DNA of 64,000 nt from Burkholderiaceae bacterium (GTDB lineage Bacteria; Pseudomonadota; Gammaproteobacteria; Burkholderiales; Burkholderiaceae_C): NCBI GenBank assembly GCA_965229345.1, contig OZ245872.1, forward strand, positions 3,094,971 through 3,158,970. The letters are read 5' to 3'. Positions 7,684 through 28,418 of the stretch are shown here, piece after piece. Below the pieces are notes generated by a model. It was not told where the DNA came from. It did not search any database and saw only the letters and a list, made by a program, of their open reading frames with translations. The first letter of the stretch is position 1. Every line of letters begins with the position of its first letter. Made by a program: the position numbers and the translations under genes.

Positions 7684-7704
7684 TTTGATTATTTAAACGT
7701 AGTT
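7684..7704 (+). repeat. 21-nt AT-rich motif, copy 2 (TTTGATTATTTAAACGTAGTT), 71 nt upstream of the 7775 start
   Basis: 19/21 identical to 7004..7024. Confidence 0.6.
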
Positions 7705-7774
7705 GTACTCTTTTCTGGTTCGGTTTGTTGTTGGTTGGTTCGTTCCATCGATTCACTTCACAAAGGATTCATCC

Positions 7775-9647: not shown

Positions 9648-11091
9648 TGCGCAGACCTTCGCGGCCTTGCTGCGCGGTGATTTCTACGCCTTTGTGCAGC
9701 GCAGCTTTGCGGTGCTGAATCCGGCGATTCCGTTTGCGGAGAACTGGCACCTGGAGTTGCTGGCCGGTTCGCTGGAGCGCTGCCGTACCGGGGCGTGTCG
9801 TCGGCTGATCATCAATGTGCCACCGCGCAGCCTGAAGTCAATCTGTGCGTCGGTGGCGTTTCCGGCATGGGTCCTGGGGCACGACCCGTCGGCGCGGCTC
9901 ATCTGTGCGTCGTATGGGCAGGAGCTGGCGGCCAAGCACGCGCTGGACACGCGCATCGTGATGGAGGATGCGTTTTACAAGGTCACGTTTCCAGGGACGC
10001 GGGTGTCGGCGAGGAAGCAGGCGTTGGCAGACTTTGAGACGACGGCCAAGGGCGGACGGATGGCAACGTCAGTGGGTGGGGTGCTGACAGGCCGGGGTGC
10101 GGATTTTCTGATCATTGACGATCCGCAAAAGCCCAATGAGGTGCTCTCGGAGGTACAGCGCGCCTCCGTCAATGACTGGTATGACCACTCGCTGCTGAGC
10201 CGGCTGAACAACCAATCGACCGGGGTGATCATTGTGATCATGCAGCGGCTGCACCTGGATGACCTTGTGGGCCACGTGCTCGAGCAAGGGGGCTGGGAAG
10301 TGTTGCGCCTGCCGGCGATCGCCGTGGACGACGAGGTGCACCGGATCTGGACGCCATACGGCGAATACACGCATGTGCGGCGTACGGGTGAGGCGCTGCA
10401 TCCGGCACGTGATTCGCTGGAGACGCTGGCTGCCATGCGTGCTTCGATGGGTGAGTACCCGTTCGCCGGCCAGTATCAGCAGGATCCGGTGCCGCAGGGT
10501 GGCGGGCTGGTGAAGGGACACTGGTTCATGACGTACGAGCCGGAGCAGTTGCCGAGCTCGGGGGGCCAGATCATTCAGTCATGGGACACGGCTTCGAAGG
10601 AAAGCGAGTTGTCGAGCTTCAGTGTGTGCACAACCTGGCTGGTGCATGACAAGCGGCATTACCTGCTGCATGTGCTGCGCCGTCGTATGGACTACCCGAC
10701 GTTGAAGCGCGAGGTGGTTCGGCTGGCGAAGGAATTCAAGGCGGCCACGGTGCTGATCGAAGACAAATCTTCTGGGATTCAGTTGATTCAGGAATTGCGC
10801 GGTGAGGGCTTGTACAGCGTGAAGGGGGTCCGGCCGGAAGGTGACAAGACGATGCGCCTGAACGCGCAGACGGCGACGATCGAGAACGGGTTGGTGTTCC
10901 TGCCGCGTCAGGCTCCGTGGTTGCTGGACTATGTGGCGGAGATGACGAGTTTCCCGAGGGCCAAGCACAGTGATCAGGTGGATTCGACGTCGCAGGCGTT
11001 GGCGTGGGTCAAGAGCGCGATGTATGGGCCGGGGATGGGGTTGCTCAACTACTACAAGCAGCAGGCTGAGTTAGCGCAGCGGGGGCGGTAG
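9634..11091 (+). CDS. phage terminase large subunit
   Basis: Starts FAENWHLELLAGSLE...LIINVPPRSLKS (Walker A-like). Also has IIDDPQKP (Walker B) and a C-terminal nuclease region with ATVLIEDKSSG and DQVDSTSQAL. Confidence 0.8.
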   Translation: MSSFDAQTFAALLRGDFYAFVQRSFAVLNPAIPFAENWHLELLAGSLERCRTGACRRLIINVPPRSLKSICASVAFPAWVLGHDPSARLICASYGQELAAKHALDTRIVMEDAFYKVTFPGTRVSARKQALADFETTAKGGRMATSVGGVLTGRGADFLIIDDPQKPNEVLSEVQRASVNDWYDHSLLSRLNNQSTGVIIVIMQRLHLDDLVGHVLEQGGWEVLRLPAIAVDDEVHRIWTPYGEYTHVRRTGEALHPARDSLETLAAMRASMGEYPFAGQYQQDPVPQGGGLVKGHWFMTYEPEQLPSSGGQIIQSWDTASKESELSSFSVCTTWLVHDKRHYLLHVLRRRMDYPTLKREVVRLAKEFKAATVLIEDKSSGIQLIQELRGEGLYSVKGVRPEGDKTMRLNAQTATIENGLVFLPRQAPWLLDYVAEMTSFPRAKHSDQVDSTSQALAWVKSAMYGPGMGLLNYYKQQAELAQRGR

Positions 11092-11275: not shown

Positions 11276-12772
11276 ATGAATCACGACCAAATCAGCCTGT
11301 CTGTCCTCGAATCCCACCTTTGGGAGTCCGCCAACATTCTGCGCGGCCCGGTCGACGCCGCCGACTTCAAGACCTACATCTTTCCGCTGCTTTTTTTCAA
11401 GCGCATCTGCGATGTCTGGGACGACGAGTACCAGGAGATCGTTGACGAAACCGGGGATGAACAACTGGCTTGGTTCCCGGAATCGCACCGCTTCCAGATT
11501 CCCGAAGACTGCCATTGGAACGACGTCCGCAGCAAGGCCAGCAACGTCGGCGCCGCCTTGCAGCGCGCCATGCGCGAGATCGAGAAGGCCAACCCAGAGA
11601 CGCTGTACGGCGTGTTCGGCGATGCACAGTGGTCAAACAAGGACCGGCTCTCGGATGCCCTGCTCAAGGATCTGGTTGAGCATTTTTCTCGGCTGCCGCT
11701 CGGCAACCACAACGTCACTTCCGACCTGCTCGGTAATGCCTACGAGTACCTGATCAAGAAGTTCGCTGACGCCACCAACAAGAAGGCCGGCGAGTTCTAC
11801 ACGCCGCGCAGTGTGGTGCGGTTGATGATCGACATGCTCGCCCCCAAGGAAGCCGAGACGATCTACGACCCCGCGTGCGGCACCGGAGGCATGCTGCTGG
11901 CCGCCGTGCAGCACGTGAAGGAACAGCACGGAGACGTGAAGCGTCTGTGGGGCAAGCTGTACGGCCAGGAAAAGAACCTGACCACCTCGTCGATCGCCCG
12001 CATGAACCTGTTCCTGCACGGCATCGAGGATTTCCAGGTGGTGCGTGGCGACACGCTGCGCAACCCGGCCTTCTTCGACGGCGACCGGCTCGCCACCTTT
12101 GATTGCGTGATCGCCAATCCACCCTTCTCGCTCGAGAAGTGGGGTGAAGAGCTGTGGCTGAGCGACCCCTTCGGCCGCAACTTCGCGGGCCTGCCGCCTT
12201 CGTCGAGCGGCGACTTCGCCTGGGTTCAACACATGGTGAAGTCCATGGCCGACGTGTCAGGCCGTATGGCCGTCGTGCTTCCCCAGGGGGCCCTTTTCCG
12301 AAAAGGCGCTGAAGGAGAAATCCGGCGGAAGCTGCTGGAGATGGACCTGATCGAAGCGGTGATCGGGCTCGCACCTAATCTGTTCTACGGCACAGGGCTC
12401 GCGGCGTGCATCTTGGTCCTGCGCAAGCGCAAGTCTGCTCAGCACAAGAAGAAGGTGCTGATCGCCGATGCATCGCGACTGTTCCGCCGCGGCCGCGCGC
12501 AGAACTATCTGGAGCTTGAACACGCCGCCGACATAGTGGGTTGGTATCGCGGCTTTTGCGATGTGCAGGATGCCGTGCGAGTGGTCAGCCTCGACGAGAT
12601 CAAGGCAGAGGACTGGACGCTGAACATTTCTCGCTACGTGCTGCCACCGCTGCAGGAAGACATTCCACCGCTGCCTGAGGCCATCGCCACATTCAAGGAG
12701 GCGCTGACCCGCTGTCGCGAAGCCGAAGAGCGCCTCGCCCAGATCATGACCGAAGGGGGGTGGCTGCAATGA
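11276..12772 (+). CDS. hsdM: type I restriction-modification methylase subunit HsdM, paralogue 1
   Basis: N-terminal HsdM domain (LWESANILRG), GEFYTPRSVV, AdoMet motif DPACGTGGML and catalytic NPPF (VIANPPFSLEKW). Confidence 0.9.
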   Translation: MNHDQISLSVLESHLWESANILRGPVDAADFKTYIFPLLFFKRICDVWDDEYQEIVDETGDEQLAWFPESHRFQIPEDCHWNDVRSKASNVGAALQRAMREIEKANPETLYGVFGDAQWSNKDRLSDALLKDLVEHFSRLPLGNHNVTSDLLGNAYEYLIKKFADATNKKAGEFYTPRSVVRLMIDMLAPKEAETIYDPACGTGGMLLAAVQHVKEQHGDVKRLWGKLYGQEKNLTTSSIARMNLFLHGIEDFQVVRGDTLRNPAFFDGDRLATFDCVIANPPFSLEKWGEELWLSDPFGRNFAGLPPSSSGDFAWVQHMVKSMADVSGRMAVVLPQGALFRKGAEGEIRRKLLEMDLIEAVIGLAPNLFYGTGLAACILVLRKRKSAQHKKKVLIADASRLFRRGRAQNYLELEHAADIVGWYRGFCDVQDAVRVVSLDEIKAEDWTLNISRYVLPPLQEDIPPLPEAIATFKEALTRCREAEERLAQIMTEGGWLQ

Positions 12773-13236
12773 TGTATGAGGAGGTCATCGCTGACTTTGC
12801 ACAGCGAACTGCAGCGAATCTAAAAGCCATTCGGGCAATGCGAGCCGGGGACTCCAAAGCAGATGTCTACGAGGTAACTCAACTCGTGAACTCGATGCTG
12901 GGCCTGCTGGTGTTCCCTCAGCAGCGGTACATCGATCGGATTCCCAAGACGTCGATAGCTGAGCTTGAACGCGACGGATGGCCCATTCCTTCCGTGATTG
13001 GTGACTATCCACAAGTGGAAGATTTGCGCGACTTGGTACGCATGCTTCGGAACGCTGTGACGCACTGCAACCTTGAGTTCCAGCCGGGTCCGGGCGGCGA
13101 GATTGAGCGTTTGACCGTGTGGAATACAGATCCAAGGAGCCGGAAAGTGACTTGGAAGGCGGAGATGATGGTCGCCGACCTTGATGGGATCACCCAAAAG
13201 TTCATCGAGGTGCTCTTGAACAAAAAGGCGCCGTGA
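12769..13236 (+). CDS. small HEPN-domain protein (Rx4H motif) embedded in the type I R-M operon
   Basis: RNAVTH at 13048..13065 fits the HEPN Rx4-6H motif in an all-helical ~155-aa protein. The ATG at 12769 overlaps the hsdM1 stop (ATGA), and its own stop overlaps the hsdM2 ATG. Visibly lower G+C than both flanking genes. Confidence 0.55.
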   Translation: MMYEEVIADFAQRTAANLKAIRAMRAGDSKADVYEVTQLVNSMLGLLVFPQQRYIDRIPKTSIAELERDGWPIPSVIGDYPQVEDLRDLVRMLRNAVTHCNLEFQPGPGGEIERLTVWNTDPRSRKVTWKAEMMVADLDGITQKFIEVLLNKKAP

Positions 13237-14750
13237 TGAGCCGCATTTCCCAACAACAACTAGAGAGCTATCTGTGGGGCGCCGCCGTGCTGCTGCGCGG
13301 CTTGATCGACGCGGGCGACTACAAGCAGTTCATCTTTCCGCTGCTGTTCTACAAGCGCGTCTCGGATGTCTGGGACGAGGAATATCAGGCGGCGCTGGCC
13401 AACTCAGGCGGCGACCTCTCCTACGCGCAGTTCGCCGAGAACCATCGGTTCCAGATCCCTGAGGGTGCGCACTGGAACGAGGTGCGTCAGACACCGAAGA
13501 ACGTCGGCGCGGCCATCCAGAAGGCCATGCGCGCCATCGAGACCGCCAACCCGGATCTGCTCGACGGCATCTTTGGCGACGCGCCCTGGACCAACCGCGA
13601 GCGCCTGCCCGATGAAACGCTGAAGAACCTGATCGAGCACTTCTCGACCCAGACGCTCTCGGTGGCCAACGTACCCGAGGACGAGCTGGGCAACGCCTAC
13701 GAGTACCTGATCAAGAAGTTTGCGGACGACTCCGGCCACACGGCGGCCGAGTTCTACACCAACCGCACCGTCGTCCACCTGATGACGCAGCTCCTGGCCC
13801 CGCAAGCGGGCGAGTCGATCTACGACCCCACGTGCGGCACCGGCGGCATGCTGATCTCGGCGTTGGACGAAGTGAAGCGCTCGGGCGGTGAGTACCGCAC
13901 GCTGAAGCTCTACGGGCAGGAGCGCAATCTCATCACCTCGTCCATCGCCCGCATGAACTTGTTCCTGCATGGCGTGGAGGACTTCGAGATCATCCGCGGC
14001 GACACGCTGGCCGACCCCAAGCACATCGAGGGCGACCGCCTGCGCGAGTTTGACGTGATCCTGGCCAACCCGCCGTACTCCATCAAGCAGTGGAACCGCG
14101 AGGCCTGGAGCAGCGACAAGTGGGGCCGCAACTCCCTGGGCACGCCGCCACAGGGCCGCGCCGACTATGCGTTCCAGCAGCACATCCTGACCAGCCTCAC
14201 CGCCAAGGGGCGTTGCGCCGTGCTCTGGCCGCATGGCGTGCTGTTCCGCAATGAGGAACAGGCCATGCGCGCCAAGATGGTCGAGCAAGACTGGGTGGAG
14301 GCCGTCATCGGCCTGGGGCCGAACCTTTTCTACAACTCCCCGATGGAGTCGTGCATCGTCATCTGCAATCGCAAGAAGGCCGCTGCACGCAAGAGCAAGG
14401 TGATCTTCATCGACGCGCTGAACGAGGTCACCCGCGAGCGGGCACAGAGCTTCCTCACGCCCGCGCACCAGCAGCGCGTCCTGGCCGCCTACAAGACGTT
14501 TGCCGATGCGCCCGGTTTCGCAAAGGTCGCCACGTTGGCCGAGATCGGCGGCAATGCGGCCAATCTGTCGATCCCGATGTACGTGAAGCGCATCGCGGCT
14601 TCTGTTGCCACCGACAGCAATGGCCATGCAGTATCGCTGCGTTCGGCCTGGGCACAGTGGCAGAACGACGGCCGTGCCTTCTGGCAGCAGATGGACGCGC
14701 TGGTTGAAACGCTGGATGGCGTGATCGCGGAGGACGTCGAGCGTGCCTGA
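13236..14750 (+). CDS. hsdM: type I restriction-modification methylase subunit HsdM, paralogue 2
   Basis: Collinear with paralogue 1, roughly half the residues identical by eye. Has DPTCGTGGML and catalytic NPPY (ILANPPYSIKQW). Carries EFYTNR instead of EFYTPR. Confidence 0.9.
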   Translation: MSRISQQQLESYLWGAAVLLRGLIDAGDYKQFIFPLLFYKRVSDVWDEEYQAALANSGGDLSYAQFAENHRFQIPEGAHWNEVRQTPKNVGAAIQKAMRAIETANPDLLDGIFGDAPWTNRERLPDETLKNLIEHFSTQTLSVANVPEDELGNAYEYLIKKFADDSGHTAAEFYTNRTVVHLMTQLLAPQAGESIYDPTCGTGGMLISALDEVKRSGGEYRTLKLYGQERNLITSSIARMNLFLHGVEDFEIIRGDTLADPKHIEGDRLREFDVILANPPYSIKQWNREAWSSDKWGRNSLGTPPQGRADYAFQQHILTSLTAKGRCAVLWPHGVLFRNEEQAMRAKMVEQDWVEAVIGLGPNLFYNSPMESCIVICNRKKAAARKSKVIFIDALNEVTRERAQSFLTPAHQQRVLAAYKTFADAPGFAKVATLAEIGGNAANLSIPMYVKRIAASVATDSNGHAVSLRSAWAQWQNDGRAFWQQMDALVETLDGVIAEDVERA

Positions 14751-15930
14751 CAAGAAGAACAAGAGCCTGAGGCCCAGCTGGCGCCAGGTGAAGTTTGGCG
14801 ATGTGGTGCGGCAGTGCAAAGAGAGAGCCGATCCGGAGACCTCGGGTCTCGAGCGCTACGTCGCTGGTGACCATATGGACACCGACGATCTACGGCTGCG
14901 CCGGTGGGGTGTCATTGGCTCCGGCTACTTAGGGCCAGCGTTTCACATCCGGTTCAAGCCAGGACAAGTTCTCTACGGCTCGCGACGAACCTATCTGCGC
15001 AAGGTGGCCGTTGCAGCCTTCGAGGGCATCTGTGCCAATACGACTTTCGTGTTGGAGTCGAAATGCACAGGTGAGCTTCTGCCGGAGTTCCTTCCCTTCT
15101 TGATGCAGACCCAGGCATTCAATGCGTTCTCGGTCAAGAATTCGAAGGGCTCGGTCAACCCGTATATCAACTTCTCTGATTTGGAGCAGTTCCAGTTTGC
15201 TCTGCCTTCTGTCGAAGATCAGCGGAAGATTGTCCAAGTTCTAACAGCGGCGGATGCGTGCGCAATAGCGTATGAGGAGGCGAAAGAAGCACACGAGCGG
15301 CTGATCGCATCCTTCATTCAGGAGTCCTTCTTGGACTTTGATGGCCGCTATGAACACAGGCCCTGCAGCGAGCTGATGGAGAAGATCACGGTGGGAATAG
15401 TGGTCAAGCCGGCTGACCTGTATGTCGGTACCGGTCAAGGAGTGCGAACCTTAAGGTCTCTGAACGTATTCCCAGGGCGCTTCGTGCTGGATGAGCTGGT
15501 CGAGATAAGTGTCGAGGGACACGCAGCTCACCAGAAGTCGGCGTTGACCGCTGGAGACATTGTGGTTGTCAGAACTGGGAGGCCGGGCGATGCCGCCGTC
15601 GTTCCGGCTGACCTAGCGGAGACGAACTGCATAGACCTGATTGTTGCGAAGCCTGGCCCGTCCATAACTGCGGACTACGTAGTCACGTTTCTCAACTCTC
15701 AGTTCGGACTCCGGATCTTCAGTTCGGGAACAACTGGAACTGCACAGAAGCATTTCAATGTTGGAGAGTTTTCGAAGCTTAGGCTACCCGTTCCCCCGTT
15801 CGCTATGCAGCAAGAGTTTGGCACTAGACTTTCAGCACTTAAGGAGCCGATCCAATCACTTGAGGGTCGACTCCGAGTTGCACGCGCGACGAAAGCGATT
15901 GCCGTCAATTCAGCAATCTGTGGAGCGTGA
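14743..15930 (+). CDS. hsdS: type I restriction-modification specificity subunit HsdS
   Basis: Two target-recognition-like halves separated by a conserved helical spacer (LPSVEDQRKIVQVL..., LPVPPFAMQQEF...). The GTG start overlaps the hsdM2 stop. Confidence 0.85.
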   Translation: MPDKKNKSLRPSWRQVKFGDVVRQCKERADPETSGLERYVAGDHMDTDDLRLRRWGVIGSGYLGPAFHIRFKPGQVLYGSRRTYLRKVAVAAFEGICANTTFVLESKCTGELLPEFLPFLMQTQAFNAFSVKNSKGSVNPYINFSDLEQFQFALPSVEDQRKIVQVLTAADACAIAYEEAKEAHERLIASFIQESFLDFDGRYEHRPCSELMEKITVGIVVKPADLYVGTGQGVRTLRSLNVFPGRFVLDELVEISVEGHAAHQKSALTAGDIVVVRTGRPGDAAVVPADLAETNCIDLIVAKPGPSITADYVVTFLNSQFGLRIFSSGTTGTAQKHFNVGEFSKLRLPVPPFAMQQEFGTRLSALKEPIQSLEGRLRVARATKAIAVNSAICGA

Positions 15931-18929
15931 TCTCGATGGCCTTCAACGAATCGAACACCGTAGAAGCCTACGTCCGCGATCTGCTCGCAGGACCCATCAA
16001 GACGACACCACTCAACGCGGTACACGAACCCCTGCCCAGCTACGGTCCTAGCCCCAAAGGCATCGGCTGGCGCTATGCAGCCCCCGCCGAGGTGCCGCGC
16101 CAGATCCAGGAAGTGCTGGTCGAGCCCTGGATGCGCGATGCGCTAATCCGCCTGAACCCGGAGATCGCCGCCCAGCCCGACCGCGCCGACGAGGTGCTCT
16201 ACAAGCTGCGCGCCATCGTGTTGTCGGTGCGCTCGGATGGCCTGATCCGCGCCAACGAGGAGATGACCGCCTGGATGCGTGGCGAGCGCTCCTTGCCCTT
16301 CGGCTCGAACAACGAGCATGTGCCGGTTCGGCTGATCGACCTGGACGACCCGAAGCAGAACCAGTACATCGTCACCCAGCAGTTCATTTACCGCGCAGGG
16401 CCCACGGAGCGCCGGGCCGATCTGGTGCTGCTGGTCAACGGTCTTCCGCTGGTCCTGATCGAGGCCAAGACACCGGTCAAGAAGTGCATCAGCTGGGTCG
16501 ACGGTGCGGTGCAGGTACACGACGACTACGAGAAGTTCGTTCCGGAACTCTTCGTCTGCAACGTGTTCTCGGTGGCCACCGAAGGCAAGGCCTACCACTA
16601 CGGGTCGATCGGCCTGCCGGTCAGGGACTGGGGCCCTTGGCACCTGGACGGAGGCGATGCGCAGCACCACCCGCTGAAGTCTCTCAAGCTCTCGGCCGAG
16701 AGCATGCTGCGCCCGCATGTGGTGCTGGACATCCTCGGCAGCTTCACCCTGTTCGCCACGGACAAGAAGAAGCGCCGCATCAAGATCATCTGCCGCTATC
16801 AGCAATACGAGGCGGCGAACAAGATCGTCGAGCGCGTGTTGGCGGGCCACCCGAGGAAGGGGCTGATCTGGCACTTCCAGGGCTCGGGCAAGTCGCTGCT
16901 GATGGTGTTCGCCGCGCAGAAGCTGCGCATGCATGCCGGCCTGAAGAACCCCACCGTGCTGATCGTGGTGGACCGGATCGATCTGGACAGCCAGATCACC
17001 GGCACCTTCACCGGGGCGGACATTCCGAACCTGGAGAAGGCCGACAGCCGAGAGAAGCTGCAGCTGTTGCTGGCGCACGACGTGCGCAAGATCATCATCA
17101 CGACGATCTTCAAGTTCGGCGAGGCCAGCGGGGCGCTGAACACGCGCAGCAACATCATTGCGCTGGTGGACGAGGCCCATCGCACGCAGGAAGGCGACCT
17201 GGGCCGCAAGATGCGCGAGGCCTTGCCGAACGCGTTTCTGTTCGGTCTGACGGGCACGCCGATCAACCGCGCCGACCGCAACACCTTCTACGCATTCGGT
17301 GCCGACGAGGACATCGCCAGCGGCAAGGGCTATATGAGCCGCTATGGCTTCGAGGAGTCGATCCGCGACGGTGCCACGCTGAAGCTGCACTTCGAACCAC
17401 GGCTGATCGACCTGCACATCGACAAGGGCGCGCTGGACGCCGCCTACAAGGACCTGACAGGTGGCCTGTCGGATCTCGATAAGGACACCCTGGCCAAGAC
17501 CGCCGCCAAGATGGCGGTCTTGGTCAAGACGCCCGAACGCGTTCGAAAGGTGTGCGAGGACATCGTCGAACATTTCCAGACCAAGGTGGAACCGAACGGC
17601 TTCAAGGGCCAGATCGTCACGTTCGACCGGGAGTCCTGCCTGCTGTTCAAGGCCGAGCTGGACAAGCTGCTGCCGCCCGAGGCCAGCGATATCGTGATCT
17701 CGGTGCAGGTCGCGGACAAGAAGGAACACCCGGAGTACGCGAAGTACGACCGCAGCCGTGACGACGAAGAGAGGCTACTGGACCGCTTTCGGGATCCGGC
17801 CGATCCGCTGAAGCTGATCATCGTCACGGCCAAGCTGCTGACAGGCTTCGACGCGCCCATCCTGCAGGCGATGTACCTGGACAAGCCGCTGCGGGACCAC
17901 ACGCTGCTGCAGGCCATCTGTCGCGTGAACCGCACCTACTCCGAGCAGAAGACTCACGGTTTGATCGTGGACTACCTCGGCATCTTCGACGATGTAGCGG
18001 CAGCACTGGAGTTCGATGATCAGAGCGTCAAGCAGGTGGTCAGCAACATCCAAGAATTGAAGGACAAGCTGCCTGAAGCCATGCAGAAGTGCCTGGCCTT
18101 CTTTGCCGGCTGTGACCGCACGCTGCAGGGCTACGAGGGGTTGATCGCCGCGCAGCAGTGCCTCCCGAACAACGAAGTGCGAGACAACTTTGCGGCCGAG
18201 TACAGCGTGCTCAACAAGATCTGGGAGGCGCTGTCACCAGACACAGTGCTGGGCCCCTTCGAGAAGGACTACAAGTGGCTGTCGCAGGTGTACCAGTCGG
18301 TGCAGCCGTCCAGCGGCCACGGAAAGCTGGTCTGGCACTCGCTCGGCGCCAAGACGATCGAGCTTATCCACAAGAACGTGCATGTCGATGCTGTTCGGGA
18401 CGATCTGGACACGCTGGTGATGGATGCGGATCTGCTGGAGGCAGTGCTCTCGAACCCCGACCCGAAGAAAGCCAAGGAGATCGAGATCAAGCTCAAGCGC
18501 CGGCTGCGCGGACACGAGGGCAATCCCAAGTTCAAGCAATTGTCAGAACGACTGGATGCGCTGAAGGACCGCTTCGACTCAGGCCAAATCAATAGCGTCG
18601 AATTCCTGAAGCAGCTGCTTCAGATCGCTAAGGAAACACTGCAGGCCGAGAAGGACGAGCCACCGCAAGAGGACGAGGATCGAGGCAAGGCCGCGCTGAC
18701 CGAGCTGTTGAACGAAGTCAAGACCGAGGCGACGCCAATCATGGTCGCGCGCGTGGTCACCGACATCGACGAGATCGTGCGGCTGGTGCGCTTTCCGGGT
18801 TGGCAGGGAACCCAGGCTGGAGAGCGTGAGGTCAAGAAGGCGTTGCGGAAGGCGCTGTTCAAGTACCAGCTGCATGCGGATGAAGAGCTGTTTGAGAAGG
18901 CCTTTAACTACATACGGCAGTACTACTAA
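15927..18929 (+). CDS. hsdR: type I restriction endonuclease subunit HsdR (SF2 helicase/translocase)
   Basis: Nuclease region DLVLLVNGLPLVLIEAK, Walker A FQGSGKSLLM, DEAH box VDEAHRTQ, motif III GLTGTPI and motif VI QAICRVNR. The start overlaps the hsdS stop. Confidence 0.9.
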   Translation: MISMAFNESNTVEAYVRDLLAGPIKTTPLNAVHEPLPSYGPSPKGIGWRYAAPAEVPRQIQEVLVEPWMRDALIRLNPEIAAQPDRADEVLYKLRAIVLSVRSDGLIRANEEMTAWMRGERSLPFGSNNEHVPVRLIDLDDPKQNQYIVTQQFIYRAGPTERRADLVLLVNGLPLVLIEAKTPVKKCISWVDGAVQVHDDYEKFVPELFVCNVFSVATEGKAYHYGSIGLPVRDWGPWHLDGGDAQHHPLKSLKLSAESMLRPHVVLDILGSFTLFATDKKKRRIKIICRYQQYEAANKIVERVLAGHPRKGLIWHFQGSGKSLLMVFAAQKLRMHAGLKNPTVLIVVDRIDLDSQITGTFTGADIPNLEKADSREKLQLLLAHDVRKIIITTIFKFGEASGALNTRSNIIALVDEAHRTQEGDLGRKMREALPNAFLFGLTGTPINRADRNTFYAFGADEDIASGKGYMSRYGFEESIRDGATLKLHFEPRLIDLHIDKGALDAAYKDLTGGLSDLDKDTLAKTAAKMAVLVKTPERVRKVCEDIVEHFQTKVEPNGFKGQIVTFDRESCLLFKAELDKLLPPEASDIVISVQVADKKEHPEYAKYDRSRDDEERLLDRFRDPADPLKLIIVTAKLLTGFDAPILQAMYLDKPLRDHTLLQAICRVNRTYSEQKTHGLIVDYLGIFDDVAAALEFDDQSVKQVVSNIQELKDKLPEAMQKCLAFFAGCDRTLQGYEGLIAAQQCLPNNEVRDNFAAEYSVLNKIWEALSPDTVLGPFEKDYKWLSQVYQSVQPSSGHGKLVWHSLGAKTIELIHKNVHVDAVRDDLDTLVMDADLLEAVLSNPDPKKAKEIEIKLKRRLRGHEGNPKFKQLSERLDALKDRFDSGQINSVEFLKQLLQIAKETLQAEKDEPPQEDEDRGKAALTELLNEVKTEATPIMVARVVTDIDEIVRLVRFPGWQGTQAGEREVKKALRKALFKYQLHADEELFEKAFNYIRQYY

Positions 18930-20518: not shown

Positions 20519-21378
20519 AGAGGCTTAAAGTTCCGGCCTTCGACGACTCGGAGATTTACTTTGCCTGTGCTGCCGCTATACCGGGGGTTCAAGCAGCTGC
20601 GGCCTACACGGCAGCCTCAAGTGCAATGATGTTGCAATCCATCGAGTATCGCGTCCGAGCAGCCAGCAATGCTCTCCATACTTTTCAAGCAAGCGACAGT
20701 GGTAATGACCAGCAAGTTGTCGCAGGGGGTCTTACGAAAGGCGACCTCAAGAAGCTGTACGACCGGGGGATGCTGAAGGGTGCAGACGGGCGCACCTATT
20801 ACGATAAATTGCTCGCGTCTGCGCCGTTGGGGAAGTGTCCGTATTGCCAGTTTGGACATGCAGAGACGCTGGATCACTTCCTATCTAAGGCTCGATATCC
20901 GTCATTTGCAGTGCTACCAAGCAATCTGATTCCTTCGTGTATGCGATGCAACAAGGGCAAGGGGGGTGGGGTCGTTACCCCTGAGATGGAGATGTCGCAT
21001 CCGTACTTCGAGCTTACGCACATCGAGCAGGACGTCTGGCTTTCTGCAGAAGTCGCAGAGACGAGCCCCGTTACGGCAACGTATGCGATCACGACGCCTT
21101 CGCATTGGCCGATAGATCTTGCTCGTAGAGTCAAAAATTACTTTGACGAGTTCGACCTATCAGTCCGGTATGCCGTCGAGGCTGCGAGTGAATTGGTTTC
21201 GGTCTCCGCTTATCTGGGTGCGTTACCCTCCGCCGACGTGCGCCTTGATCATCTCCAACGGGTCGCCACAGAGGAGCGTGGTCTGTACAAGAACGGCTGG
21301 AAGACAGCGCTGTATGCGGCGCTGTCGACATCGAACTGGTACTGCGAGATTGGTTACGCTGGCGTTGGGGTGACTTAG
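20515..21378 (+). CDS. HNH endonuclease, Septu PtuB-like (TIGR02646-like)
   Basis: CPYCQFGHAETLDHFLSKARYPSFAVLPSNLIPSCMRCNKGKG is a CxxC...H...N...CxxC HNH fold. The ATG overlaps the ATPase stop (ATGA at 20515-20518). Confidence 0.7.
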   Translation: MKRLKVPAFDDSEIYFACAAAIPGVQAAAAYTAASSAMMLQSIEYRVRAASNALHTFQASDSGNDQQVVAGGLTKGDLKKLYDRGMLKGADGRTYYDKLLASAPLGKCPYCQFGHAETLDHFLSKARYPSFAVLPSNLIPSCMRCNKGKGGGVVTPEMEMSHPYFELTHIEQDVWLSAEVAETSPVTATYAITTPSHWPIDLARRVKNYFDEFDLSVRYAVEAASELVSVSAYLGALPSADVRLDHLQRVATEERGLYKNGWKTALYAALSTSNWYCEIGYAGVGVT

Positions 21379-21577
21379 ACAGCGCCTAGCCTCCGAAGTC
21401 CCCGCCACACTGGTCAAATTGCGCGCGCTCCCCCTCGATCGAGGTAGGGGCTCCGCCGCGTTTTCGTTCTCCCGAAAGGGGAACGAGTTCGAACGGCTAA
21501 TCGTCGCTTCGATCTACTTCCCCAACTAGCCTCCCTGCGCGTAGGCGAGTGCCGGTGGGAACAGCTCCAGCTCCTTT

Positions 21578-22135
21578 CTATGGTCCCAAAAGATCCTTGA
21601 GCAGAGCTATGTCTTCCTTGGGCACGCCCATCCGCGAGTGCTTGAGAGCTGAGATAACGAGGTCTCGAATACTCTGAACGGCCCAGGCCTGTCGATATCC
21701 ACTGGTCAGCATGAGCTGCAGAGTACTGGCGACGGATACGGTCGCCCCGCCTTCGCTGGCTCTACGACGAGCCTTGCGCTCGTCGAGGATGATGCTGGAG
21801 CCACGACCGGAGATTGCGAGTGCTGCGCTCTCGCCGTCATCCAGCCGTGTTCCGAGCGGCCCTGATACGAAGTTCAGGTAAGCGTCGTACTCGATCTCTG
21901 TCATGCGAACTTCTTCCAGTGTGCCGCTCGCGAACAGCCTGCACAGCGCATCGTTGTGGTCGAAGCCGGGAATAGGGTGCCGTCGAACTTCCTTTAGGGT
22001 TCGCTGCTCAATTAAGCACCGCTCTCCAAGGCCTTCAAGGACCAGCACTGGCTTGCCGCTTCCAAGTAGGTTGATAAGTACGCTGGCGTCAAGAACGACT
22101 AGGCCCCTCGGCAGGTAATCATTCGGCAAGGTCAA
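21578..22135 (-). CDS. PIN-like nuclease (COG2405/DUF3368-like), last gene of the QueC-like operon
   Basis: VVLDASVLINLL is the first acidic PIN motif, and GESAALAISGRGSSIILDERKARRRA resembles the GEaxaIxLA...DDxxAR motif of COG2405 PIN proteins. The tracked ORF extends to 22186. A TTG at 22135 preceded by GGGGAGG is the more likely start. Overlaps the upstream gene end. Confidence 0.55.
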   Translation of the reverse strand: MTLPNDYLPRGLVVLDASVLINLLGSGKPVLVLEGLGERCLIEQRTLKEVRRHPIPGFDHNDALCRLFASGTLEEVRMTEIEYDAYLNFVSGPLGTRLDDGESAALAISGRGSSIILDERKARRRASEGGATVSVASTLQLMLTSGYRQAWAVQSIRDLVISALKHSRMGVPKEDIALLKDLLGP

Positions 22136-23282
22136 GCACCACCTCCCCTGAGTGGCCGTCGCGCTCCTGAAACGCGCGCCGAACATCCAGCAGGTTCAGC
22201 TCGAGCATCGACGCAATCTGCTGCTCAGAGAGAAGTTCTCGGTCGTACGCAACGCCAGCGAAGAGAAGTGAGCGCGACGTGAACGGCCGATTCTCTTCAG
22301 GCACGCTCATCTCCTCGGCTACATGGCGGCGATGCTTTAGGCCGACGCCTTGTTTTCGTAAGGAGTCGTAGGTGCCCAGAGGCAGCATATCCAAAGACTC
22401 GAGGCGACGAGTCATCGCCTCGATGGAGATATTGAAGAACAACGCCATCATCAGCAATTGCCTAACTGAAAACTGGTCAAACAGCTCCTTGAGTTCCTTG
22501 GCCTTTCGGCGCACCGCAGTCGCCGGGGCAAGGAATGCGAGGCCAAACAGGTCACAGAACCGCTCAGTTCGGCTCTGAGGAGTCTCACCGTCAAAATGAA
22601 CAACCAGACTGGCCTGCCGAGTCAGTGCATGACCGACCTCGTGAGCTCCCGTGACGCGTCGCCTGTACGGTGGGTGCAGCGAATTCAACAGCACAAAGCC
22701 ACCGACCTTTTCATCGAAGGCGACAGCACCTGATATCTTGGATGGCAGCGGGCGCTCGAAGACTCGCAAGCCCATCTCAAACTCCATTAATGAAGCGAGG
22801 TCCTGGATAGGCCCCAGGCCGAGGCCCAGGCGCGAGCGCAACTGAAGTGCAGCATCTTCAGCCTGCCGGTCTAACGAGCCTGATTTCGACACCACGACCG
22901 CTGGGAGGTCGACATGTGGCGGCGCATGCCCAAGTAGCGCTTCCAGTTGAAGCGCTGAGCTGCCGAGCCGGTTGAGCATGTTCGCCACCAATACTTCGTC
23001 GGCGGCTTGCAAGGCCGACGCAGAACTCCGGAACTGCACCTCGAGTTCCAGAGATACAAGGTCGTCATTGACCAATTCGCTTTCGGGAACGTCGTAGAGC
23101 TCCGCGAACTGGCGCAGTTCCTGGCTAGAGACAGCACGCTTGCCAGCCTCAATGGCGACAAGCGTCGTCCGGGCAATGCCCAGCTTTGAAGCGGCAACCT
23201 CTTGGGTAATACGGTGAATCGTACGGGCATGCCGGAGCTTTGCCCCGAGCGCCTCTGCTCGGGTGTTGGCGTCGGTTGCCAT
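22119..23282 (-). CDS. XRE-family HTH fused to ImmA/IrrE (M78, COG2856) zinc metallopeptidase
   Basis: N-terminal HTH LRHARTIHRITQEVAASKLGIARTTLVAIEAGKR and a HExxH motif in VTGAHEVGHAL. Start taken at the ATG at 23282 (MATDANTRAE), 1 nt after the upstream stop. Confidence 0.8.
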   Translation of the reverse strand: MATDANTRAEALGAKLRHARTIHRITQEVAASKLGIARTTLVAIEAGKRAVSSQELRQFAELYDVPESELVNDDLVSLELEVQFRSSASALQAADEVLVANMLNRLGSSALQLEALLGHAPPHVDLPAVVVSKSGSLDRQAEDAALQLRSRLGLGLGPIQDLASLMEFEMGLRVFERPLPSKISGAVAFDEKVGGFVLLNSLHPPYRRRVTGAHEVGHALTRQASLVVHFDGETPQSRTERFCDLFGLAFLAPATAVRRKAKELKELFDQFSVRQLLMMALFFNISIEAMTRRLESLDMLPLGTYDSLRKQGVGLKHRRHVAEEMSVPEENRPFTSRSLLFAGVAYDRELLSEQQIASMLELNLLDVRRAFQERDGHSGEVVLDLAE

Positions 23283-23283
23283 C

Positions 23284-24678
23284 TCAGTTCCCTGCGAAGT
23301 CGGCCACCCAGGACTTCCGTCCGCAGGACTCCACAAACACATCCCATTCTTTCCGATGCTGGATTAGAAATGCTTCCATCTTGTCTCTCACGTTTTTGAT
23401 TGGTTCGTTGAGGCCGCGCGTGAGGGCAGCGACTTCTGCCTGCACACGCACGGCATGAGGTTGAGTTGCAAGGTCGGCTAGCCGCTGCATTGACCGAATG
23501 CTGTTGAGCGCGAGATCCCGGTTCGCGTTAACTGCGTGCGGTACGCCCGCAGGGAACGACTTTTCAAAGGTCGTTTCGCGGAGGTTTTGCGCTCGATATT
23601 CGGTTGAGTCGGCCACGCCGGCCCATTGCAGCGACACGCGTCTGAGGATGCAGTTCCCGCAGAGGCCGCAGTGCATCGACTTCCTGCCGCTGCTCGAGTG
23701 TCTCGCGTCGTACGAGCAGGATCGGTGGGTGGCGAGCCAGTGCGCGACGTTGGTCTCCCGCTTCGCCAAGCTAGCCAGCACCTGCCCCTTCGTAAGGAAG
23801 AGAGCGGGGTGGTCAAACTTGACTTCGGACTTCGTCAGCAGACGAATCAGATTCGCCAGACGTGACGTGAAGCCAGGATGGCAGCTGCGGTGTGGCGCCT
23901 CGGCGCCGAGCCGAACCAGCGAGCCACCGAGGCTGCCTTGGCCGTTCTCGGGAATCACGACACGCGCCGGTTGCGCGATGGCGGCAGCGTATCCCGCGAG
24001 CAGGTCATACAGGAAAGGCCGAGAGCGGAAGGTCAACTCAGCTCGATGGGGCTCGGTCGCATATGCCGCTACCTCAACCGTGTAGAACTCGAGCTGCTTG
24101 TTTCGGGCAAGGTTGCTCCACTCCTTTGGTTTGTCCTTGGCCCGCACGTTGACCAGTACCAATTCGGGTGGCGCTGATTCCGCTCGAAGTTCTTTGGCAA
24201 TGGCGAAGGAATCGAGGCCGTTGCTGAATGGCATGAACACCCTGAGCTGCTGAGGCGGCTCGACTAGATGGTCCTGGCGAGGCTCGCCTTTCCGGGGCTT
24301 TCGGTAGGTGAAAGCGAAGGACCAGCGGTCTGCCGTCAGGAAGCCCAGCGTTTCCGCGAGCGCGCGAGTCACCTCAGGGGAGCGCCAAAGCTTGAGGTCG
24401 CTCACTGGCGCGCTGATGGCGAGGTCGCGTGACCATCCCTTCGTGTAGTGCCGGACCGCGGAGCGGTCGGCCGTCCGCACGGCGCTGATGACTGACGTAA
24501 GATCCTGAAATACTTCCTCCTGGCTGTTGAAGCAGTAGCGCTGAAGATGGCTCGCGTCGATGCGAGTCGCGTCTCTCAGTGGTGCCGAAGCCTGGCCCTT
24601 CTGATTGCCTCGCCTCCGATGCGGGAGAGGACGAGCGGACTCTTCGGCATCGCTAGGAGTGGTTTGCAGCATCGTCAT
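23284..24678 (-). CDS. QueC-like PP-loop ATPase family protein with N- and C-terminal extensions (QatC/Cap9-like?)
   Basis: Degenerate PP-loop FMPFSNGLDS (residues 149-157) and a Cys cluster C321...C337GLC340GNC343ILRR resembling the QueC zinc site (CGxCxxCxxR). 464 aa. The ATG overlaps the upstream gene stop (ATGA at 24675-24678). Confidence 0.6.
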   Translation of the reverse strand: MTMLQTTPSDAEESARPLPHRRRGNQKGQASAPLRDATRIDASHLQRYCFNSQEEVFQDLTSVISAVRTADRSAVRHYTKGWSRDLAISAPVSDLKLWRSPEVTRALAETLGFLTADRWSFAFTYRKPRKGEPRQDHLVEPPQQLRVFMPFSNGLDSFAIAKELRAESAPPELVLVNVRAKDKPKEWSNLARNKQLEFYTVEVAAYATEPHRAELTFRSRPFLYDLLAGYAAAIAQPARVVIPENGQGSLGGSLVRLGAEAPHRSCHPGFTSRLANLIRLLTKSEVKFDHPALFLTKGQVLASLAKRETNVAHWLATHRSCSYDARHSSSGRKSMHCGLCGNCILRRVSLQWAGVADSTEYRAQNLRETTFEKSFPAGVPHAVNANRDLALNSIRSMQRLADLATQPHAVRVQAEVAALTRGLNEPIKNVRDKMEAFLIQHRKEWDVFVESCGRKSWVADFAGN

Positions 24679-25229
24679 ACCCCCTGCAAGTTCAGTTCGG
24701 TATTTAGGCTCTGCTCGACGGTCGGTTTGCGCATTCGGACCTTAGGCACAGGTGGATGTCGGAACTCGCACTTGGGCAAGGCCGCAAGTAAAGCGGCCCG
24801 GAGTCGCCGAACCTGGGTGTCGTGGTGACGGCGGGCGACCCACGCAACCGCACCTTCGATGCCGTCTTCGGCGCTAGCCTCAATTGCTGCTTTGACGACT
24901 CGGCCCCGCGTGTCACCGGCTGGCCGACCACTCCAAATCTCGGCGAAGGCGATGTCAAGGGCCCGACGCGCATCTTGGGACGGGCACCAAGCCTCGAGCG
25001 CCGACAACCTTTGTTCCATCTGCCCGGTTCCGAAGAGTTCGACTTGCTGAGTTGCTAGAACCTGCAGAAACTCCCTGCCCCAGGCTCCCTTCATCCAATC
25101 TGCCCTTTCCCAAGCGGCCCGGCTAAGAGTGTCAACAAGGTCACCGCCCAAGCTAGGCGCGCACGCAACCTGGACCACTTTCCGCCAGGGATTCGTCTGA
25201 GGAACCGAATGATGAAGGTCGTCGCGCAC
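24675..25229 (-). CDS. hypothetical protein, first gene of the QueC-like operon
   Basis: The tracked ORF reaches 25301, but its first 24 codons translate the operator/promoter region. A GTG at 25229 sits 7 nt after AGGAGGAG. No recognisable domain. Confidence 0.5.
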   Translation of the reverse strand: MRDDLHHSVPQTNPWRKVVQVACAPSLGGDLVDTLSRAAWERADWMKGAWGREFLQVLATQQVELFGTGQMEQRLSALEAWCPSQDARRALDIAFAEIWSGRPAGDTRGRVVKAAIEASAEDGIEGAVAWVARRHHDTQVRRLRAALLAALPKCEFRHPPVPKVRMRKPTVEQSLNTELNLQGV

Positions 25230-25243
25230 GGAACCGCTCCTCC

Positions 25244-25288
25244 TGACAATGTCAAGAGTAAGTGTATTTAAAAATTTGACAATGTCAA
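25244..25288 (-). promoter_or_regulatory. promoter with two copies of the palindromic operator TTGACA-N-TGTCAA
   Basis: Minus strand reads TTGACATTGTCAAATTTTTAAATACACTTACTCTTGACATTGTCAGGAGGAGCGGTTCCGTG. The -35 TTGACA lies inside the distal palindrome, followed by a 16-nt spacer and a -10-like TACACT. The proximal palindrome abuts the RBS. Palindrome centres are 33 bp apart. Confidence 0.55.
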
Positions 25289-25601
25289 ACTGAACATACA
25301 CGGTGTGCCCTTCATGTAAGGCATCTGGGCCTGGGAATGCCGCCGGTTCTATCTGTCAGACACCCAGATGGAATACGGCCGCTGTTAAAAGGTGATCAGC
25401 ATTTCGCGCCCTCCGTATGGATGTCAGCTACGGCATCACCACCAGTCACGCATTCGCGCCAACGATTCATCTGTTAGCCAATATCTCGCGCCTAAGTGCT
25501 AACTCAAGTGGTTCGCTGGACAAATGACTTGATGTGTGCCGCCCACAGAGCGTTACTGGTGCACCGCCGCGAAGGTCGCGGCGGACACCAGGAGAAGCTC
25601 A

Positions 25602-25991
25602 ATGAAGGCGAATGCAACAGGCTCGAAGGCACCGGCGATCAAGGTCGCAGCGAAAAAGCTCAGGTCCACGAAGAAGATTGATGTGCCGGCGGTGGTACCT
25701 GCGAAGGTGGTGCGTAGCAGCCGCGCCAAGACGGCTGGGGCGCTACCTCTCGTCCCTCCCACCCCATCCGAGCCGGTCGGCACCAGCAAGCAAGCTCGCT
25801 TGGTCTCGATGCTGAACGCCACCTCGGGCGCGACGCTCGAGCAGATGATGAATCTGACCGGCTGGCAAGCGCACACGGTGCGTGGCGCGATCAGCGGGGT
25901 GCTGCGCAAGCGGCTCGGCCTGAACGTGGTGTGCGATGCGGCTGGGTCGGAGGTGCGCCGCTATCGCATCGTCGGCTCGGTCGGCGCATGA
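25602..25991 (+). CDS. DUF3489 domain protein
   Basis: C-terminal SKQARLVSMLNATSGATLEQMMNLTGWQAHTVRGAISGVLRKRLGL is typical of DUF3489. RBS AGGAGAAG lies before the ATG at 25602. Confidence 0.7.
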   Translation: MKANATGSKAPAIKVAAKKLRSTKKIDVPAVVPAKVVRSSRAKTAGALPLVPPTPSEPVGTSKQARLVSMLNATSGATLEQMMNLTGWQAHTVRGAISGVLRKRLGLNVVCDAAGSEVRRYRIVGSVGA

Positions 25992-26388
25992 AGGTGGCTG
26001 ACTCGCTCGCCGAGTTGGCGGCGTTGGATCGGGCGAGTCTGGTCGAGCGCTGGGCAGCGGTGTTCGACCACCCTGCCCCGCGTCATGCCCAGGTTGGCCT
26101 GCTGCGCGGTGCGCTGGCATGGCGTATCCAGATGGAAGCTATTGCCGGCGCCGGTCGAGCCGATCGGCTGGTGCGGGGTCTGCGTCGATCTACTGTTGGT
26201 GCTGCACCTGCGGTGACACTGGCGCCAGGAACGCGGCTGCTGCGCGAGTGGAAGGGTCAGACGCACCATGTGACTGTTCTTTCATCGGGGTTTGAATACT
26301 CTGGTCGGACGTGGCGCAGCCTCACCGCGATCTCGCGTGAGATTACCGGGACGGCGTGGTCAGGCCCGCTGTTCTTCGGGTTGCGCTC

Positions 26389-26392
<4 letters not shown>
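25988..26392 (+). CDS. DUF2924 domain protein
   Basis: LVERWAAVFDHPAPRHAQVGLLRGALAWRIQ...GTRLLREWKGQTHHVTVL...SLTAISREITGTAWSGPLFFGL is typical of DUF2924. The ATG overlaps the previous stop (ATGA). Confidence 0.7.
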
Positions 26393-28083
<1,691 letters not shown>

Positions 28084-28290
28084 CCGGCTAATCGATCTAT
28101 TCGACATCTGGGCCCGCGACAGCGGGCCTTGTCGTTGGCGAGATGCACCGCGCGGAAAAGTTATACCGGGCAAATGGGCGACAGAGAATGGGCGGTGGTT
28201 TGGCGACCATCACGCCCGAAATTGCGCAGTGATCGCTATACAGAGAATTCGCCGTCGCCCGCAGGCCCGCGCAGTGCGGGGCTCGGGCAA

Positions 28291-28317
28291 GAAAAAGCCC
28301 TCCACGAGGGAGGGCTC
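28291..28317 (-). terminator. rho-independent terminator downstream of tRNA-Ser
   Basis: Minus strand reads GAGCCCTCCCTCGTGGAGGGCTTTTTC, a GC-rich 8-bp stem followed by a T-run, 9 nt after the tRNA 3' end. Confidence 0.6.
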
Positions 28318-28325
28318 AGACTTGC

Positions 28326-28418
28326 TGGCGGAGCCGGAGGGATTCGAACCCTCGATGCAGGTTTTGCCCACATACTCCCTTAGCAGGGGAGCACCTTCGG
28401 CCACTCGGTCACAGCTCC
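28326..28418 (-). tRNA. tRNA-Ser (anticodon GCU), encoded CCA end
   Basis: Minus strand reads GGAGCTGTGACCGAGTGGCCGAAGGTGCTCCCCTGCTAAGGGAGTATGTGGGCAAAACCTGCATCGAGGGTTCGAATCCCTCCGGCTCCGCCA. It has a 7-bp acceptor stem, anticodon loop CTGCTAA, a long variable arm and T-loop GGTTCGAATCC. Confidence 0.9.

Follow-up and report, generated by a model that had tools for sequence, protein, structure and literature searches.

The operon and its gene starts

We analysed a stretch of 64,000 nucleotides (hereafter the window) from contig OZ245872.1 of a Burkholderiaceae bacterium (assembly GCA_965229345.1) and describe here an operon of four minus-strand genes, A, B, C and D, which occupies positions 21578–25229 and in which neighbouring open reading frames (ORFs) overlap or lie 1 nt apart. 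A preceding inspection made from the DNA letters alone (hereafter the sequence-only reading) had reported four minus-strand ORFs with almost no intergenic space, and all were found as described. The genes, in order of transcription, are as follows.

24675..25229, minus strand: gene A, 184-amino-acid (aa) all-alpha protein with an invariant N-terminal tail; proposed partner and substrate of B
23284..24678, minus strand: gene B, 464-aa divergent QatC-family PP-loop ATP-pyrophosphatase
22119..23282, minus strand: gene C, 387-aa protein with an XRE-type helix-turn-helix (HTH), an ImmA/IrrE (M78) zinc peptidase and a C-terminal domain; RmrA-like
21578..22135, minus strand: gene D, 185-aa PIN-like protein of the COG2405/DUF3368 type with a C-terminal helical extension

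In order to compare this operon with its relatives, species-representative genomes were scanned with an alignment of the B family, which gave 17 loci (L001–L017), mostly from Burkholderiales, with two metagenome-assembled genomes labelled otherwise. Further relatives were found on alphaproteobacterial plasmids, as described below.

The stop codon of gene A overlaps the start codon of gene B in an ATGA (24675–24678), and the TGA stop codon of gene B lies 1 nt from the ATG of gene C (23282). Both junctions had been proposed in the sequence-only reading, and the 1-nt gap between B and C proved to be the conserved arrangement in homologous loci. Gene B may alternatively start at an ATG at 24672. 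The start of gene A is a GTG placed eight bases behind GGAGGAG, the same codon being used by 17/17 genome homologues and by all database homologues, with MRDDLH as the first residues. Gene D, which was expected to overlap the 3′ end of the peptidase gene from a TTG behind GGGGAGG, starts at this TTG (22135), 17 nt inside the end of gene C. In a start scan of the 17 loci, which yielded candidates in 15 (none came from L004 and L017), the TTG was the sole candidate common to all 15, and a purine-rich Shine-Dalgarno sequence precedes it in the window and in L001–L003 and L005–L016. From the arrangement of these junctions, we take the four genes to be translationally coupled, and the conservation of so weak a start suggests that keeping the nuclease D below its partner C in amount is under selection.

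Longer ORFs for A (208 aa), C (407 aa) and D (202 aa) were rejected, as their starts are not conserved, and the 208-aa version of gene A would in addition extend through the operon promoter. The annotation of the source genome seems to be wrong for two of the genes: gene D is given only as a 108-aa fragment (P0233; region 21578–22186), and gene A is given as 208 aa (P0121; 24675–25301), with a start 24 codons early that falls inside the promoter.

A single promoter overlapped by palindromes

Three elements were identified upstream of gene A.

25261..25288, minus strand: operon promoter, −35 TTGACA (25288–25283), 16-nt spacer, −10 TACACT (25266–25261)
25277..25287, unstranded: operator-like palindrome 1, TGACAWTGTCA, overlapping the −35 hexamer
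25244..25254, unstranded: operator-like palindrome 2, TGACAWTGTCA, between the −10 hexamer and the ribosome-binding site

A scan of 21300–25600 on both strands gave this promoter as its single sigma-70-like site and nothing promoter-like between B and C. By eye, many related loci, as well as alphaproteobacterial plasmids, show an equivalent TTGACA and a following TAnAnT-type hexamer ahead of gene A. A terminator scan gave nothing convincing downstream of gene D, and its matches inside the operon were at chance level.

The two palindromes are the only exact copies of TGACAWTGTCA in the window; allowing one mismatch, 3 sites were found, against 0.64 expected. In related loci the palindromes lie at about −87, −55 and −22 from the gene A start, with a spacing of 32–33 bp. 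The −55 copy, which contains the −35 hexamer TTGACA, is present in most of the 17 loci, the third copy at about −87 is present in many, and the arrangement of two or three copies is kept in betaproteobacterial as well as alphaproteobacterial copies of the operon (L001–L017, L019, L022 and L030–L037). Read in this way, all four genes would be driven by one promoter upstream of A, overlapped by conserved palindromes.

The TGACAWTGTCA sites are probably bound by the HTH of protein C. This domain is the only DNA-binding domain encoded in the operon while the conserved operators lie upstream of A, and we therefore propose that C represses its own operon. The same arrangement ties the promoter of A and B to the C–D half.

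Protein B, a predicted QatC-type enzyme

Protein B had been called QueC-like on account of a degenerate PP-loop, SNGLDS, and a cysteine cluster of the CGLCGNC type. Both are present, at residues 152–157 and as C321, C337, C340 and C343, and profile searches gave the call firm support while shifting it towards QatC: the protein matched the PADLOC QatC model (2.2e-41), the NCBIfam QatC equivalog (1.8e-43; 149 bits, with a cut-off of 280) and, in the PDB, the QatC chains 9vlk and 9zee (E 6.5e-24 and 7.1e-22), both over residues 56–379 in an alignment that takes in the QatC-specific N-terminal extension. Among 32 family members the catalytic Asp (D59), the PP-loop residues S152, G154, D156 and S157, and all four cysteines are invariant, as are an E244/G246 motif, H267-P268 and T296-K297; these invariant motifs comprise most of those given for the QatC cluster (PMC13329287). 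As judged from profile scores and motifs, protein B belongs to the QatC superfamily without being an equivalog, and it is predicted to be a catalytically intact QatC-type enzyme.

The B-like proteins differ from canonical QatC in three features. The PP-loop reads SxGLDS in the B clade and SGGLDS in canonical QatC, and PENGQGS stands in place of PENG(L/F/Y)IS. The substrate loop is PHRSCHP in the betaproteobacterial clade and DYRNHP or DLRTHP in the alphaproteobacterial clade, as opposed to STRTTHP in QatC, where it carries the invariant and essential Thr278 and Thr280 (Pseudomonas aeruginosa numbering; PMC13279940). In a neighbour-joining tree the B-like proteins form a clade of their own, apart from the QatC proteins of qatABCD operons.

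The family resemblance to QueC also allows a reading in which the block is not immune at all, and B works in the biosynthesis of 7-deazaguanine or another nucleobase, its gene being carried by chance on mobile elements under an XRE regulator. RefSeq (PGAP) indeed calls many homologues ‘7-cyano-7-deazaguanine synthase’, the other names that it gives to homologues of the operon proteins being ‘XRE family transcriptional regulator’ and ‘hypothetical protein’, and there is a weak match to Pfam QueC (PF06508, E 0.0011). However, this match scores 18.9 bits with a gathering score of 22, the QueC equivalog TIGR00364 scores 15.1 bits with a cut-off of 150.3, and the nearest relatives of B are QatC proteins, which cannot replace QueC (PMC13329287). 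The operon contains no other queuosine-pathway genes, and the PIN nuclease and the protease are always present, inside defence islands. We regard a biosynthetic role as highly improbable.

Protein A and its N-terminal tail

Protein A gave no match in Pfam, PADLOC or NCBIfam, and it belongs to a small family, with 61 clusters (50% identity) out of 1.84 billion representatives. The AlphaFold2 model (predicted local distance difference test score, pLDDT, 85.7) is all-helical, with eight or nine helices. The most conserved feature of the family lies at the extreme N-terminus, which is fixed even in members that can otherwise barely be aligned. In the window protein the invariant tail is M-R-D-D-L-H-x-S-V-P-x4-W, and the betaproteobacterial clade as a whole has M-R-D-D-L-H/Y-x-S/T-...-W. 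Most of the alphaproteobacterial plasmids encode M-S/T-D-G-P-H/F-x-S-L-P-x4-W/Y, and the Roseomonas protein starts with MRDGIW. Asp3 is the universal residue of the tail.

The tail of A and the substrate loop of B change together between clades, MRDDLH being found with PHRSCHP, M[ST]DGPH with DYRNHP and MRDGIW with PDLRTHP. A joint change of this kind would be expected if the loop of B reads the tail of A; with three states only, we consider the sequence pattern suggestive. A precedent exists in the tails of QatB (MGTS...P.W) and CdnD (MGGS), each of which is taken up in the active site of the cognate QueC-family enzyme (PMC13279940, PMC13376578). The tail of protein A parallels these tails but lacks their glycine. 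Because the putative acceptor peptide has no glycine and the recognition loop is remodelled, the chemistry of B probably differs, by comparison with these systems, from the QatC/Cap9 type. Candidate modification sites within the tail (M-x-D-x-x-H...P....W) are the invariant Asp3, or the amine of Met1 or Ser2.

The sequence-only reading had suggested that A and B form a pair similar to QatB and QatC. For B this stood, in that the enzyme falls in the QatC family; for A only the analogy survived. Protein A was rejected as a QatB homologue at the sequence level, as it matched no QatB model in PADLOC or NCBIfam and an hhalign comparison with six QatB sequences gave a probability of 0.9%. A profile search of PDB sequences, QatB chains included, returned nothing, and the model of A matched no PDB fold at E<1 in a library that runs to 2026-04-08, the QatBC structures having probably been released later. 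By its position in the operon, its all-alpha fold and its invariant N-terminal tail, protein A may nevertheless be seen as an analogue of QatB, not as a detectable homologue.

Proteins C and D

Protein C was proposed to combine an XRE-type HTH with an HExxH peptidase of the ImmA/IrrE type, and Pfam bears this out: HTH_31/HTH_3 covers residues 11–70 (HTH_31, 3e-11) and Peptidase_M78 residues 170–294 (4.6e-11), with HEVGH at residue 214. By sequence, then, an apparently intact HExxH peptidase motif is fused to an HTH. The PADLOC model of RmrA matches residues 14–368 (3.3e-30), 14 further RmrA models match as well, and weaker matches were obtained to CapP (6.5e-12) and CapH (7.9e-4). Over the 17 loci protein C is the best conserved of the four proteins.

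The AlphaFold2 model of protein D (pLDDT 92.8) had as its top Foldseek matches Nob1, VapC4, VapC and other PIN proteins, with a probability of 1.0 and target-normalised TM-scores of up to 0.68. D16, E43, E49, E102 and D118 are invariant in the D family (38 sequences), 3/38 members of which reach the Pfam PIN model PF01850; homologues carry precomputed matches to PF11848 (DUF3368/COG2405, PIN clan), and the name of one homologue is VapC family toxin. PADLOC gave no RmrT match for protein D, but only a weak one (6.5e-8) to the candidate PDC-S70. Because the predicted fold, the conserved residues and the precomputed PF11848 matches agree, we regard D as a PIN-fold nuclease whose active site is predicted to be intact.

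Conservation of the four genes as a unit

The genes A, B, C and D occur in the same order in 17/17 genome loci and in 10/10 alphaproteobacterial plasmid loci that were inspected (Ensifer, Roseomonas, two Methylocystis, two Agrobacterium, Pannonibacter, Bosea, Sphingobium and strain NT-25). Across these 27 loci the order is kept in two proteobacterial classes and down to about 28% identity in B. In the 17 genome loci, the identities of the four proteins to those of the window fall in step, from 81% to undetectable by tblastn for A, from 82% to 42% for B, from 88% to 47% for C and from 71% to 36% for D. The genes that flank the operon in the window (PtuA/B, DUF3489, DUF2924 and the recombinase) had no match in the 17 loci.

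A B-like match lies about 1.2 kb upstream in 22/23 plasmids with a D-like match, the remaining one, from Microvirga, being absent among the 40 B matches listed. C-like matches covering at least 80% of C were found in 25 plasmids, nearly all of them records with B-like matches, and the relatives of C that rank next are matched in part only, with E changing from about 1e-37 to 1e-18. Each of the four proteins thus has a clade specific to this cassette, which, as far as sequence can tell, argues strongly for one co-evolving unit and not for two neighbours. On plasmids the commoner context of QatC is the canonical qatABCD operon.

The existence of two neighbours deserves consideration, as each half of the operon resembles a known autonomous unit. 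Genes A and B could be a minimal QatBC-like pair, QatBC being active by itself (PMC13279940), and genes C and D a Rosmer-like pair in which C is RmrA and D a PIN-type RmrT, given that RmrA occurs with diverse toxins including PIN proteins (PMC10440598, PMC5499597); PADLOC likewise puts the two halves in different families. Two autonomous systems would, however, not be expected to keep the same order in 27/27 loci at such divergence, nor would D-like genes on plasmids be found essentially only beside B-like genes. Moreover, B and C are 1 nt apart with no promoter-like site found between them, and the only HTH of the operon is in C while the conserved operators lie upstream of A. We therefore judge two independent systems to be improbable. 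A related alternative in the sequence-only reading, a Rosmer-like toxin-antitoxin (TA) module merely fused in transcription to a QueC-like pair, is disfavoured by the strict linkage and by the single operator-controlled promoter. The same linkage answers the question of whether the QueC-like pair and the peptidase–PIN pair co-occur elsewhere, as they do so in all related loci inspected. That A, B, C and D form one conserved operon and one unit is, in our judgement, very likely.

In a Methylocystis rosea plasmid (L030, 2893–4287), the annotation shows no more than a 237-aa fragment of the B-like protein, but a tblastn match extends over residues 39–459; this may reflect a frameshift, a pseudogene or an annotation problem.

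Comparison with known defence systems

The closest described system is QatABCD (Gao et al. 2020), and within it the QatB–QatC core. Like QatC, protein B has a QueC-like core flanked by the same N- and C-terminal extensions, together with the catalytic Asp, a PP-loop and a four-cysteine zinc site. In both cases a small, fast-evolving, all-helical protein with a strictly conserved extreme N-terminus is encoded directly upstream, with a stop/start overlap, and the operon contains a nuclease gene and is located in defence islands. The minimal Qat unit is QatBC, in which the N-terminal tail of QatB enters the QatC active site (PMC13279940, PMC13376578); QatBC alone protects against lambda (PMC13279940), and QatB binds the nuclease QatD (PMC13639016).

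The operon also differs from QatABCD. It encodes no KAP-family NTPase corresponding to QatA (no PADLOC QatA match), and related loci have the same A-B-C-D content. No operon protein matches QatD/TatD, the sole nuclease having a PIN fold. Protein A has 184 aa and a short tail starting with MRDDLH, whereas the QatB proteins examined have roughly 275–285 aa, start with MGTS and depend on Gly2. Protein B lacks Thr278/Thr280 (PHRSCHP for STRTTHP), has an SxGLDS PP-loop, falls in a separate clade and scores below the NCBIfam QatC cut-off. Finally, an HTH–M78 protein and a PIN nuclease are added in this operon. In a survey of Qat systems, 98% of the operons were canonical (PMC13434339).

The C–D half has its own relatives. 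A gene for an HTH-DUF955 protein followed by a COG2405 PIN gene is a predicted three-component TA system (Matelska et al. 2017, PMC5499597), and C–D matches this arrangement exactly, with the HTH–M78 gene overlapping the COG2405/DUF3368 PIN gene by 17 nt; the toxin and antitoxin roles are predicted. ImmA-type antitoxins also pair with PIN toxins in NetFlax (PMC10440598). From RosmerTA, whose HTH + M78 antitoxin RmrA is matched by C over nearly its full length (3.3e-30), the C–D pair differs in that D matches no RmrT model, that C–D was always seen within the four-gene operon and never alone here, that the clades of C and D are specific to the four-gene system and that the promoter lies upstream of A.

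Type IV CBASS (cyclic oligonucleotide-based anti-phage signalling system) also combines a QueC-family enzyme with a partner from an adjacent gene that has an N-terminal tail. Action on the tail has been shown there for Cap9, which deazaguanylates the CdnD N-terminal tail and in which the PP-loop is essential (bioRxiv 10.1101/2025.04.06.647259), and is proposed here. However, we found no cGAS/DncV-like nucleotidyltransferase (CD-NTase), Cap10 (tRNA-guanine transglycosylase, TGT) or Cap11 in the operon or its immediate flanks, B is of the long QatC type and not of the minimal Cap9 type, and the tail has no glycine motif. With CapH/CapP, ImmR/ImmA and DdrO/IrrE, the operon shares an XRE-type HTH and an M78 metalloprotease associated with a mobile or immune operon, and operators overlapping the promoter; here, in contrast, HTH and protease are fused in the 387-aa protein C, encoded within the operon and not divergently, and coupled to a toxin-like PIN gene.

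We do not assign the operon to QatABCD, because QatA, QatD, the QatB glycine motif and the Thr/Thr loop are all missing, nor to RosmerTA, because neither the two-gene architecture nor an RmrT toxin is present; we place it among the QueC-family protein-modifier defence systems. This agrees with the sequence-only reading, which had noted the absence of QatA, QatD and CD-NTase partners (the operon has none, its flanks being PtuA/PtuB and DUF3489) and had known of no system joining a QueC-like enzyme with an M78 peptidase and a PIN nuclease. No PADLOC v2 model covers the block, A being unmatched, so that its hidden Markov models would at most see fragments: a lone QatC in B, a lone RmrA in C and a weak PDC-S70 in D. 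In the literature that we searched, which did not take in all subscription papers, no description turned up in which a QatC- or QueC-like enzyme is joined by a peptidase or PIN protein, and the available part of the supplement of a QueC-family network paper mentions no Peptidase_M78 neighbour. Because protein B scores below the gathering score of Pfam QueC, it probably lies outside the PF06508-based set of that paper. Not covered by these models and papers are the combination of the four genes, the family of protein A and the remodelling of enzyme B; taken singly, the C–D half and the Qat-like half each resemble known units.

A different variant was noticed on the archaeal plasmid pCBA1230-02 of Halolamina sp. 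CBA1230 (L023, 3895–6164), where two small hypothetical genes precede a QatC-like gene, whose surroundings contain neither QatA nor QatD, nor a gene for a peptidase or PIN protein. This may be another minimal or variant QatBC type.

Genomic context and proposed mechanism

The operon is located in an integrative island with the order ParB-N/methylase, terminase-like gene, type I restriction-modification (RM) locus, Septu PtuA/PtuB, four-gene operon, DUF3489, DUF2924, large serine recombinase and tRNA-Ser. The defence-island setting claimed from the letters was therefore recovered, with Septu PtuA/PtuB on one side and DUF3489, DUF2924, the large serine recombinase and tRNA-Ser on the other. In other loci the company differs and is again rich in defence genes: 8/10 sampled large neighbours match PADLOC models (Tiamat TmtA, NERD helicase, type IIG RM in two loci, PDC-M65A/B, HKD-Snf2 and Shedu), and the plasmid copies adjoin AbiE/AbiJ, Eco57I, an OLD-type endonuclease, a Fic protein and Shedu. 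As the neighbours vary yet remain defence-rich, a defence function is supported by guilt by association, and we consider a role against phages or other mobile genetic elements likely.

Our preferred reading is that A-B-C-D is a self-contained, horizontally mobile four-gene anti-phage operon, related to QatABCD but with a different substrate protein and different accessory genes, to which we give a probability of roughly 0.6. It would be reasonable, by analogy, to see the PIN nuclease as standing in for QatD and the HTH-protease, in a regulatory or sensing role, for QatA. In the resting state, the HTH of C would bind the palindromes and keep the operon low, and C would restrain the PIN nuclease D in the manner of an RmrA-type antitoxin, while the weak TTG inside the end of C would ensure that little D is made, and none without C. 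B would bind A and take its N-terminal tail (MRDDLH...P....W) into the PP-loop active site, where it would perform an ATP-dependent modification of the tail, as has likewise been proposed for QatC acting on QatB and shown for Cap9 acting on CdnD. Infection would then either alter the state of the A–B pair or directly activate the M78 protease, which would inactivate the repressor and antitoxin function of C and so derepress the operon; the freed PIN nuclease would degrade RNA or DNA and phage replication would stop. We hold the specific wiring of A–B and C–D more tentatively than the defence role, giving it somewhat less than even odds. A stronger version, in which B installs a chemically new modification on the non-glycine tail and the state of A is read by the repressor-protease, which then unleashes the PIN nuclease, is speculative and on balance doubtful.

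Several observations weigh against the preferred reading. Protein A has no detectable sequence or profile homology to QatB, and it lacks Gly2, which is essential in both QatB and CdnD. Residue 2 is Arg in the betaproteobacterial clade and Ser or Thr in the alphaproteobacterial clade; by the methionine aminopeptidase rule (PMC13279940, PMC13376578), Arg2 blocks removal of Met1 and Ser2 or Thr2 allows it, so that Met1 should stay in the former and go in the latter. The position of the N-terminal amine is thus not fixed between clades, which weakens a simple N-terminal-ligation model. As for the proposed effector, the Foldseek E-values of D are modest (3e-3 to 1e-2) and the window protein has no Pfam match of its own.

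The regulatory features of the operon can also be accounted for without any signalling from A–B to C–D. The C–D half would then be a regulatory or addiction cassette only and A–B the sufficient effector; the HTH-protease would sense DNA damage or infection and derepress the operon like CapH/CapP or ImmR/ImmA, and the PIN toxin would mainly stabilise the island. The protection against lambda by QatBC alone (PMC13279940) fits such a scheme, as do the matches of C to CapP and CapH besides RmrA, the operators overlapping the operon promoter, and the TA-like gene order with its weak TTG start for D. However, CapH/CapP-type regulators swap between systems, whereas the clades of C and D were found here only with B-like genes. 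A mere cassette is also at odds with C being the most conserved of the four proteins, and the retention of all catalytic acidic residues across the D family is no less compatible with an effector than with an addiction toxin. We consider this explanation unlikely, although it has more in its favour than the other alternatives discussed here.

If the stronger version, with a new modification of A that is read by the repressor-protease, is correct, the system would constitute an immune relay from protein modification to protease to nuclease, unlike QatABCD and CBASS, and would imply that among QueC-family ‘protein ligases’ the acceptor peptide and the active-site loop have diversified in concert. 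These enzymes have only recently been seen as protein-modifying in immunity, through Cap9 and QatC, and the cassette offers a natural experiment in which the same enzyme scaffold is found with an unrelated substrate protein, a different but equally invariant tail and a co-varying loop. Its explicit and assayable output, a PIN nuclease held by a repressor-protease, could make the effect of a Qat-type modification directly testable by measuring toxicity, transcription and cleavage. The family is modest in size and widespread, on plasmids and in islands of soil- and plant-associated Alpha- and Betaproteobacteria.

Other features of the island

The end of the island is formed by a module at 25536–28418 that comprises DUF3489, DUF2924, a 575-aa large serine recombinase and tRNA-Ser(GCT) at 28326–28418. 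The GC content across 18–23 kb is 52–58%, compared with 62–70% in the presumed core genome to the right. Beyond the Septu genes, the type I RM locus (11276–18929) begins with tandem HsdM paralogues (11276–12772 and 13233–14750), followed by HsdS and HsdR, and a small HEPN gene (Pfam pEK499_p136, 12760–13236) is inserted between the two HsdM genes. At 7703–9187 a ParB N-terminal domain is fused to an N6/N4 DNA methylase, and a protein with a terminase RNaseH-like domain is encoded at 9601–11091; the region 7703–11091 may be what is left, inside the island, of phage or satellite packaging functions.

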